Made by a program: the position numbers
Shown: positions 1 through 3,000 of the stretch, piece by piece
Layout of the letters: the number at the start of each line of letters is the position of its first letter
Position numbering within the stretch: position 1 is the stretch's first letter
Assembly (NCBI RefSeq): GCF_003018235.1
Contig: NZ_CP027437.1
Direction: 5' to 3' (one strand)
Length of the DNA: 64,000 bases
DNA from: Escherichia coli
GTDB taxonomy: Bacteria; Pseudomonadota; Gammaproteobacteria; Enterobacterales; Enterobacteriaceae

Positions 1-3000
1 GGTATCACCACTGGAGATTTGGTTACCAACATCAACCTGCTTGAGACCAACGCGACCATCGACTGGTGCGGTGATGCGGCTCCAGTCGAGTTGCAACTGC
101 GCGCTGGCGACGCTTGCTTCATCAGCCTTAATGGTGCCTTCGGTTTCACTGACCAGCGCCTGTTGGGCATCCAGCTCCTGACGGGAGACGAGATTGGTTT
201 TTGCCAGTTGCTGATAACGCGCCAGATCACGGCGGGCGTTAGCAAGCGTGGCTTTATCTTTTGCCAGTTGGCCCTGGGTTTGTGCTAATGCAACTTTGAA
301 CTGGCTGGGGTCAATTTCTGCCAGTAAATCGCCTGCTTTGACCTGCTGGCCTTCCTGGAAATGTAACGCCATCAGTTGACCATCCACGCGGCTACGCACC
401 GTAACAGTATTAGCAGCGGTAATAGTGCCAAGCCCGGTGAGGTAACGCGGTACTGCCTGTTCTACGGCGGTCGCCGCCTGAACCGGGGCTAATGGGCCGG
501 AACGCATACCACGGCGACCACCCGCTGGCGATTGCTGCGCTTGTTTCGTCGCCCCTGGGGCTGCACTCTGGGAGTCATTGCGGCCTTGCCAGAACCAGAA
601 TGCGGCGATGGCGGCGATAACCACCACGATTACGATTACCCAACGGGATTTATAACTGCCTTTCATCGTTAAGAGTTTCTCTTCCTGAAACGTTTCGCGG
701 AATGATACTAGTGTAGCCAGCCAATAAGGGAGAAAAATGGAGGAATTATGAAACACTATCGGGAATCGTCTGAATGGCGGGCACATTTGCGAGCACGCAT
801 CCAGTAATAACACAGAAAACTATTTTATCTACGCGTTAGCGATAGACTGCTTGCATGGCGAAAGGAGGTAAGCCGACGATTTCAGCGGGACGCTGAAACG
901 GGAAAGCCCCTCCCGAGGAAGGGGCCTTAAATAAGGAAAGGGTCATGATGAAGCTACTCATCATCGTGGTGCTCTTAGTCATAAGCTTCCCCGCTTACTA
1001 AGACTACCAGGGCGGGGGAAACCCCGCTCTACCCTCACTCCTGAAAGTATGCCTTCACGATGAGATTGTCAATCCGCAGGCTTTGTAGTCTGCGATCCTG
1101 CCAGCAAATATTCTTTGCGAGTCGTTACGCAATAATCACAGAGGAAACTATTTTATTCACGCGTTAGCGACAGACTGCATTCAGGGCGAAAGGAGGTAAG
1201 CCGATGATTTCAGCGGGACGCTGAAACGGGAAAGCCTCTCCCGGTGAAGAGGGCTTTTAATAAGGAAAGGGTTATGATGAAGCACGTCATCATACTGGTG
1301 ATACTCTTAGTGATTAGCTTCCAGGCTTACTAAGAACACCAGGGGGAGGGGGAAACCTCTCCCTAACCCTCACTCCTGAAATTATGTCACTCCGCCCTTA
1401 GTGTCAATCGACGGCTCTCCGTTCTTGCGAGGCGAATAGCAAAATTTTCTGCGCCGCCGGGCCTAATTCTGAAAGTTTCTTCGTTTGCTCTTATTTCATT
1501 ATTGCAGTCGGTATGATACCGGACCTCGATAATTCTCTAAGAAAGGATTTCTTATGAGCGAACAAATCACGTTTGCCACCAGCGATTTTGCCAGTAACCC
1601 GGAACCACGTTGCCCCTGCATTTTGCTACTGGATGTTTCTGGTTCTATGAACGGTAGACCTATTAATGAACTTAACGCCGGATTGGTTACCTTTCCTGAT
1701 GAACTGCTTGCTGATCCGCTGGCTTTAAAAAGAGTGGAACTCGGCATTGTGACGTTCGGCCCGGTGCATGTGGAACAACCCTTTACCAGCGCCGCTAATT
1801 TTTTTCCGCCCATCCTGTTTGCCCAGGGCGATACACCAATGGGTGCGGCCATTACCAAAGCCCTGGATATGGTAGAGGAGCGGAAACGTGAGTATCGTGC
1901 AAATGGTATTTCGTATTATCGCCCGTGGATTTTCCTGATCACCGATGGCGCTCCAACCGATGAGTGGCAGGCTGCCGCCAACAAAGTGTTTCAGGGGGAA
2001 GAAGATAAGAAGTTTGCCTTCTTTACCATTGGTGTTCAGGGGGCGGATATGAAGACTCTGGCACAAATCAGCGTTCGTCAGCCTTTGCCTCTGCAAGGAT
2101 TACAATTCCGTGAACTGTTTAGCTGGTTATCCAGTTCGCTGCGTTCGGTTTCCCGCTCCACGCCGGGAACGGAAGTTGTGCTGGAAGCGCCAAAAGGCTG
2201 GACGTCAGTGTGAGCTGGCGTCTGGTTTATGCATCCGCTGTTGGAACATCGCACATTAGTGCTGATTTGCCTTGTCAGGATGCCTGCCAGATGCAGGTTG
2301 TCTGGTTAAACGACCAGCAACCATTACTGGTGATGTTCCTTGCTGATGGCGCAGGTAGCGTTTCGCAGGGAGGAGAAGGCGCGACGCTCGCCGTCAATGA
2401 AGCGATGGCGTTTATGGTGCAAAAAGTACAGGACGGTGAATTGGGGCTTAATGATGTCCTCGCCACAAATATGGTACTGACTATTCGTCAGCGACTTTTT
2501 GCCGAGGCGGAAGCCAAAGAATTAGCAGTTCGCGATTTTGCCTGCACGTTTCTGGGATTGATTTCATCGGCTAATGGCACCTTGATTATGCAGATTGGCG
2601 ATGGCGGCGTGGTGGTGGATTTTGGTCACGGTCTGCAATTGCCGCTTACGCCGATGGTGGGTGAATATGCCAATATGACGCACTTCATTACCGATGAAGA
2701 TGCCGTTTCCAGACTGGAAACTTTCACCAGCACTGAGCGTGTGCATAAAGTTGCAGCATTTACGGATGGTATCCAGCGACTGGCGTTAAATATGTTGGAT
2801 AATTCTCCGCATGTGCCTTTCTTTACCCCGTTTTTCAATGGACTGGCGTCAGCAACGCAGGAACAACTCGATTTATTACCTGAATTGTTAAAGCAGTTTT
2901 TGTCCAGCCCAGCGGTAAACGAGCGTACCGATGATGATAAAACGTTAGCACTGGCGCTGTGGGCAGAGTGAGTTTCTCATGGCGGTTGAAGACAACAATT

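Follow-up and report, generated by a model that had tools for sequence, protein, structure and literature searches.

Two adjacent Ibs/Sib type I toxin-antitoxin modules in the mdtA-yegL intergenic region of Escherichia coli, orthologous to ibsB/sibB and ibsA/sibA of K-12

Alignment with K-12 and searches against family models indicate that positions 760-1420 of the window, by which we mean the whole 64,000-nt stretch of Escherichia coli DNA analyzed here, almost certainly hold two adjacent Ibs/Sib type I toxin-antitoxin modules, ibsB/sibB and ibsA/sibA, which are orthologs of the K-12 modules. Tandem modules of this kind between mdtA and yegL had been proposed by the sequence-only reading that preceded this work, and the proposal was borne out by the K-12 alignment, the Pfam family PF13956 and the Rfam family RF00113. 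In a global alignment of window positions 1-3182 with the reverse-complemented K-12 stretch (NC_000913.3), the region corresponded without gaps to the K-12 mdtA-yegL intergenic region in reverse orientation; the yegL-mdtA interval of NC_000913.3 is annotated with sibA (b4436), ibsA (b4667), sibB (b4437) and ibsB (b4668). As judged by the same alignment, the 5' part of mdtA occupies 1-666 on the minus strand of the window, with its start codon ending at 666, and yegL, encoding a vWA-domain protein, lies at 1554-2213 on the plus strand. The genes, their order, their neighbors and their spacing are the same as in K-12, and the differences amount to 8 SNPs in the 887-bp intergenic region, together with an orientation opposite to K-12 numbering. 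The comparison with ibsA/ibsB and sibA/sibB of K-12, which had been recommended beforehand, showed both toxin ORFs to be identical base for base (0 mismatches vs. b4667 and b4668), and the -35 and -10 hexamers and the +1 G of both sib genes are likewise those of K-12. Each Sib RNA carries a single SNP, positioned in or beside its terminator hairpin: the one at 927 affects the base of the predicted terminator hairpin of sibB, where the window allele gives an extra A-U pair in the predicted stem, and the one at 1245 falls within the sibA terminator hairpin. A further SNP, at 1062, alters the spacer of the sibB promoter, while the remaining five (758, 761, 777, 816 and 1171) are outside the Sib RNAs and the sib promoters.

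The locus is widely retained in the species. In a megablast search with 667-1553, the intergenic region was matched in 5419 of 5426 complete E. coli genomes, and at least 80% of it was found in a single place in 5261 of the 5426 (~97%). RefSeq features underlying the best matches were named 'type I toxin-antitoxin system toxin IbsA' and 'Ibs family toxin', and the PGAP-annotated K-12 record contains the two ibs coding sequences, with the sib RNA features absent.

Both toxin genes are on the plus strand. The ibsB coding sequence (945-1001; K-12 b4668) reads ATGATGAAGCTACTC...GCTTACTAA, with codons ATG ATG AAG CTA ... TAC TAA, and specifies the 18-residue hydrophobic peptide MMKLLIIVVLLVISFPAY followed by a stop; the ibsA coding sequence (1274-1333; K-12 b4667) reads ATGATGAAGCACGTC...GCTTACTAA, with codons ATG ATG AAG CAC ... 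TAC TAA, and specifies the 19-residue hydrophobic peptide MMKHVIILVILLVISFQAY, again followed by a stop. A Shine-Dalgarno-like AAGGA is placed 7 nt before the ATG in each case, at 933-937 for ibsB and at 1262-1266 for ibsA, and the two peptides are present exactly as they had been quoted at the outset. A failure of these peptides to match the Ibs family had been named beforehand as grounds for giving up the proposal; the Pfam profile PF13956 (Ibs_toxin) instead scored 49 bits with the ibsA peptide and 42.1 bits with the ibsB peptide against a cut-off of 27, with E-values of 5e-13 and 8e-11 for the two peptides and matches spanning profile positions 1-19 of 19. For this search, which requires a query of at least 20 residues, the peptides were padded at the N-terminus, and the matched stretch was the native peptide. 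With NCBIfam, neither peptide matched an Ibs model, and the sole hit, to TatA, was below threshold and meaningless. Both peptides are hydrophobic (mean Kyte-Doolittle hydropathy of 2.34 and 1.98), with a stretch of I, L and V occupying residues 4-13, as would be expected of a single membrane helix. As for the list of ORFs compiled mechanically, the ibsB peptide falls under its 20-residue limit, and that of ibsA also appears there as the tail of a 29-residue ORF starting with GTG.

The antitoxin genes are on the opposite strand. Coordinates transferred from the K-12 annotation (b4437 and b4436) place sibB, an antisense small RNA of 136 nt with its +1 G at 1036, at 901-1036, and sibA, of 144 nt with its +1 G at 1371, at 1228-1371. 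The interval 1036 to 901 of sibB contains the whole of ibsB together with its Shine-Dalgarno sequence, and the interval 1371 to 1228 of sibA likewise contains the whole of ibsA and its Shine-Dalgarno sequence; each Sib is, by construction as a cis-antisense RNA, perfectly complementary to its own ibs ORF and ribosome-binding site. With cmscan at gathering thresholds, the Rfam model SIB_RNA (RF00113; cut-off 56) scored 149.5 bits for sibA at 1407 to 1259 and 140.8 bits for sibB at 1072 to 930, both on the minus strand, with E-values of 6.8e-33 and 9.5e-31 and both matches full-length (covering positions 1-147 of the 147 in the model); no further SIB_RNA copy turned up when all 64,000 nt of the window were scanned. 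These matches, like those to PF13956, are far beyond chance. When folded alone, SibA reached -53.2 kcal/mol (z = -3.85 vs. shuffled controls) and SibB -62.5 kcal/mol (z = -4.41), each with a closed multi-hairpin domain, then a single-stranded stretch, and then a GC-rich terminal hairpin; these terminal hairpins, at 1257 to 1231 in sibA and 928 to 903 in sibB, end in UUUCC.

The Rfam model begins at a TTGACA -35 box, with the result that its first ~35 positions describe promoter and not transcript. On this basis and from the sequence itself, the putative sibB promoter (1037-1072, minus strand) comprises the -35 box TTGACA at 1072 to 1067 and a -10-like CATACT at 1051 to 1046, and the putative sibA promoter (1372-1407, minus strand) comprises TTGACA at 1407 to 1402 and CATAAT at 1386 to 1381, the latter within TGaCATAAT, which resembles an extended -10 element; the sibA promoter is identical to that of K-12. 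In both promoters the -35 and -10 hexamers are separated by a 15-nt spacer. A scan of 650-1560 for consensus promoters and terminators called no sib promoter and no sib terminator, and its output consisted only of an unrelated promoter-like site and plus-strand hairpins. The candidate sib promoters were probably missed because of their 15-nt spacer, given that the scanner needs 16-18 nt, and the candidate terminators were likely missed because of their interrupted U-tract.

The two modules are direct repeats of each other. Based on four direct-repeat families and a pairwise alignment, we have delimited a 287-bp unit B carrying ibsB/sibB (786-1072) and a 294-bp unit A carrying ibsA/sibA (1114-1407), with a mean column identity of 85% between them. 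Similarity is lost outside the units (26% identity before 786 and 41% after 1072), and the linker of ~41 bp between the units is unrelated sequence. The repeat search, carried out independently, gave a start-to-start spacing of 328-335 bp, and the interval 760-1420 encloses both units. Divergence is distributed unevenly along the unit. In unit B coordinates, identity to unit A is 84% over the 115-bp segment upstream of the 3' end of Sib (786-900), 84% over the terminator part of Sib (901-944), 78% over the ibs ORF with its stop (945-1001), 66% over the 5' part of Sib beyond the ibs stop (1002-1036) and 67% over the sib promoter (1037-1072). The units thus diverge most in the ibs ORF, the Sib 5' part and the promoter (66-78%) and least upstream of ibs (84%), and the early impression that toxin codons and flanking stretches account for most of the differences is broadly right.

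The action of such modules has been described in K-12. Han et al. reported that the five Sib RNAs, with well-defined 5' and 3' ends, repress their cognate ibs mRNAs, ibsA being the exception; SibC recognizes ibsC through two variable recognition domains, of which TRD1 pairs with the ORF and TRD2 with the translation-initiation region, whereupon pairing spreads, and the SibC-ibsC duplex is cut by RNase III in vitro, with functional repression published for SibC and SibD (PMC2943612). Over-expression of IbsC depolarizes the membrane within minutes and kills the cells (PMC8309996, citing Fozo 2008), and it also induces the psp genes (PMC8309996). SibA transcript levels in K-12 have been followed by northern blot, and sibA and sibB were found to have +1G start sites and to yield no NAD-capped RNA (PMC12956327); the window retains both of these +1 G residues. 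That ibs-sib can be duplicated inside a single intergenic region has also been described explicitly (PMC2887945). We infer transcription, repression and toxicity in the window from this published work on K-12. By this account, Sib would be made constitutively and would first contact its own ibs mRNA through the two domains, TRD1 within the coding sequence and TRD2 where translation begins; pairing would then spread, translation would be blocked, and the duplex would become a substrate of the kind that RNase III cleaves in vitro. Mapping of the SibC elements onto the window places the AAGGA of ibsB (933-937) within the region targeted by TRD2. Upon loss of Sib or over-expression of ibs, the peptide would enter the inner membrane, leading to depolarization and growth arrest. 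The sequence divergence between units A and B would keep the pairs largely cognate-specific, with the published exception of ibsA, which is apparently recognized by other Sib RNAs as well.

To examine this specificity at the level of sequence, SibA and SibB of the window were aligned with SibC, SibD and SibE of K-12. SibA and SibB are identical at 107 of 144 positions, and the longest perfect run that they share is 14 nt, a maximum that fits the published specificity of cognate pairs; at the equivalent of SibC TRD1 (+46..+68) they differ at 4 of 23 positions and at the equivalent of TRD2 (+99..+115) at 2 of 17. SibA and K-12 SibE, on the other hand, have a common run of 24 nt across the TRD2 region, which reproduces what Han et al. 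noted in 2010, namely that such a run in SibA and SibE may explain the cross-recognition of ibsA (PMC2943612).

The K-12 modules ibsC/sibC, ibsD/sibD and ibsE/sibE resemble units A and B in that the Ibs ORF lies fully within an antisense Sib of ~140 nt, and the D and E modules form a tandem pair as A and B do; the C, D and E peptides have 19 residues. They differ from A and B in occupying other genomic sites, in having unrelated sequence upstream of ibs, and in their TRD1 and TRD2 regions, which would account for cognate specificity; in addition, SibC, SibD and SibE have an initial A and an NAD cap, whereas SibA and SibB have an initial G and lack the NAD cap (PMC12956327). All five paralogous units retain the reading frame of the ORF, its start and stop codons and the Shine-Dalgarno sequence despite a mean DNA identity of 71%. 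In the DNA alignment, the core common to the five begins at about the start of the ibs mRNA and reaches the -35 box of sib; the ~100 bp upstream are shared by A and B alone, and D and E share a version of their own. This pair-specific upstream sequence suggests that each tandem pair may have arisen by local duplication of a longer unit. Farther afield, the chromosomal type I systems ldr-rdl and zor-orz likewise combine a small hydrophobic toxin with an antisense RNA and are duplicated in one intergenic region, although their peptides and RNAs have no sequence relation to ibs/sib.

The stretch upstream of ibs deserves comment. The segment at 786-900 on the plus strand, which would hold the ibsB promoter and the beginning of its leader, is 84% identical to 1114-1228 of unit A and has no counterpart in units C, D and E of K-12. 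The ibsC mRNA, of ~160 nt, begins 18 nt past the 3' end of SibC (PMC2943612), and because of homology to this mapped start, the 5' ends of ibsB and ibsA would lie approximately near 883 and 1210. The hexamers near these putative starts are weak (TTGCAT/TTCAGG ... GACGAT/GATGAT), in a part where unit C does not align reliably; the GAYGAT by 1204 in unit A and by 876-878 in unit B may represent the -10-like element of the ibs promoter. Since identity is higher upstream (84%) than in the ORF (78%) and in the Sib 5' part and promoter (66-67%), and since this stretch is missing from C, D and E, we speculate, as a rather doubtful proposition, that 786-900 and 1114-1228 form a selected region providing ibsA and ibsB with a common transcriptional signal, with the recognition regions having been driven apart. 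One candidate for the signal acting on this region is low Mg2+, as reported for ibsA of Salmonella.

Some small ORFs in these parts were considered and rejected as genes. A mini-ORF in the leader of unit A (AGGAGG, ATG at 1204, MISAGR*) has ACG as the homologous codon in unit B (876-878), and nothing comparable exists in units C, D and E. The small ORFs at 774-839 and 1060-1167 (plus strand) have homologous stops but start in non-homologous DNA, and only one of the ~seven codon differences in their shared part is synonymous.

While the identity of the modules is hardly in question, the target of their toxin invites an alternative. The modules may be just what they seem, with Ibs binding the a and b subunits of ATP synthase Fo and lowering ATP as a regulated response, instead of acting by damage to the membrane. 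A 2025 preprint reported that IbsA of Salmonella binds Fo a and b and inhibits proton translocation, that it is induced in low Mg2+ and has a virulence phenotype, and, as one of its section headings states, that His3 and Leu11, in the numbering of the Salmonella peptide, are needed for its activity (10.1101/2025.05.26.656083). These findings come from a preprint and concern the Salmonella orthologue only, and the depolarization by E. coli IbsC within minutes, along with induction of psp, is what one expects of membrane damage (PMC8309996); nonetheless, the two mechanisms can coexist, and sequence does not discriminate between them. We consider the Fo target to be possible, albeit somewhat unlikely, as the account of these two toxins.

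It could also be argued that one or both modules, with ibsB and ibsA as the candidates, are decaying relics that have kept their sequence and lost their toxin-antitoxin action. This argument draws on four observations: 1) IbsB is annotated in NC_000913.3 as a 'putative toxic peptide' only; 2) it has one residue fewer than the four other Ibs peptides when the K-12 paralogs are compared; 3) neither unit A nor unit B offers good candidate hexamers for an ibs promoter; 4) expression of ibsA is tolerated by cells lacking sibA (Han et al., PMC2943612). The last of these, however, was ascribed by Han et al. to cross-repression by other Sibs and not to lost toxicity (PMC2943612). Moreover, both ORFs are intact, provided with a Shine-Dalgarno sequence and identical to those of K-12, both Sib genes are matched by the Rfam model over its entire length, and the intergenic region is retained in the ~97% of complete genomes noted above, all of which makes decay very improbable. 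The notion that the region is a mere non-coding intergenic repeat, with its small ORFs and antisense signals being incidental, found no support here and has a practically negligible chance of being correct, given peptide and RNA family matches far above curated cut-offs, the retention of frame, start, stop and Shine-Dalgarno sequence across five units as divergent as these, and the published repression of ibs by Sib and depolarization by IbsC in K-12 (PMC2943612, PMC8309996).

We therefore return to two adjacent Ibs/Sib modules, orthologous to those of K-12, as the reading of this region. The locus is already known, and it has no unusual feature in the window. Its importance beyond correct annotation is small, inasmuch as this is a textbook pair, described in K-12 since 2008. 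What the locus does illustrate is that toxins of 18-19 residues escape ORF-size filters and that PGAP-annotated records give the ibs genes without the sib RNAs; for these reasons, a scan of E. coli sequence should recognize the pattern of tandem ibs-sib modules and not flag it as new.

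The segments preceding the two toxin ORFs, at 786-900 upstream of ibsB and 1114-1228 upstream of ibsA, share 84% identity between the two modules, whereas the ibs ORF and the 5' region of the antisense Sib RNA are less alike, at 66-78% between units B and A. On sequence comparison, the paralogous K-12 modules (the C, D and E units) harbor no counterpart of this upstream segment. We surmise that 786-900 and 1114-1228 may possibly represent a regulatory region common to ibsA and ibsB. Within the segment of unit A, we noticed at 1191-1224 an AGGAGG motif followed by an ATG at 1204 that opens a 6-codon frame (MISAGR*), in contrast to unit B, which has ACG at the homologous codon (876-878). 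This arrangement is probably fortuitous, or else reflects GAYGAT acting as a -10-like sequence in the ibs promoter.

Downstream of the modules, 1554-5643 is the already known E. coli kinase/phosphatase/vWA cluster, comprising yegL with its vWA domain, pphC, which encodes a PP2C-type phosphatase and has a 4-nt overlap with yegL, the oppositely oriented yegJ, and yegI, encoding a protein kinase of 648 aa; compared with K-12, the pphC region is visibly more divergent than the neighboring genes.

Elsewhere in the window, Rfam matches included two JUMPstart (ops-containing) elements on the + strand, at 17160-17198 (57.3 bits) and 41712-41750 (53.6 bits), whose positions suggest leader sequences of the operons for colanic acid (wza) and for the O antigen; an algC RNA motif at 31744-31793 (+, 77.3 bits); two adjoining copies of naRNA4 at 36183-36350 (-, 73.1 and 65.7 bits); and STnc490 at 63257-63382 (+, 111.9 bits), the last adjoining an IS200 fragment.

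On the strength of its 99.9% co-linear homology with NCTC10973, we identify the region at ~41000-64000 as an O-antigen cluster of the ABC-transporter type, in which wzm/wzt belong to the 'O89/O101/O162 family'. The gene order, as judged by the same homology, runs from galF and galE through several glycosyltransferases to gnd, a seven-gene block and ugd, with the seven extra genes between gnd and ugd including oxidoreductases, an EmrE-like protein and a GT2 glycosyltransferase. Between ugd and hisIE lie a frameshifted IS3 transposase and the IS200 fragment, and no wzzB is annotated in this stretch of the NCTC10973-homologous region.

Among 5426 complete E. coli genomes, the source has no close representative, with top identity reaching 98.7% for 1-25000 and 97.9% for 25001-50000; for 41000-64000, 99.9% identity was found in just five of these genomes, one of them NCTC10973. 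Judged from these identities, the background resembles that of a divergent lineage of Escherichia or Shigella, carrying a rare, shared O-antigen region.
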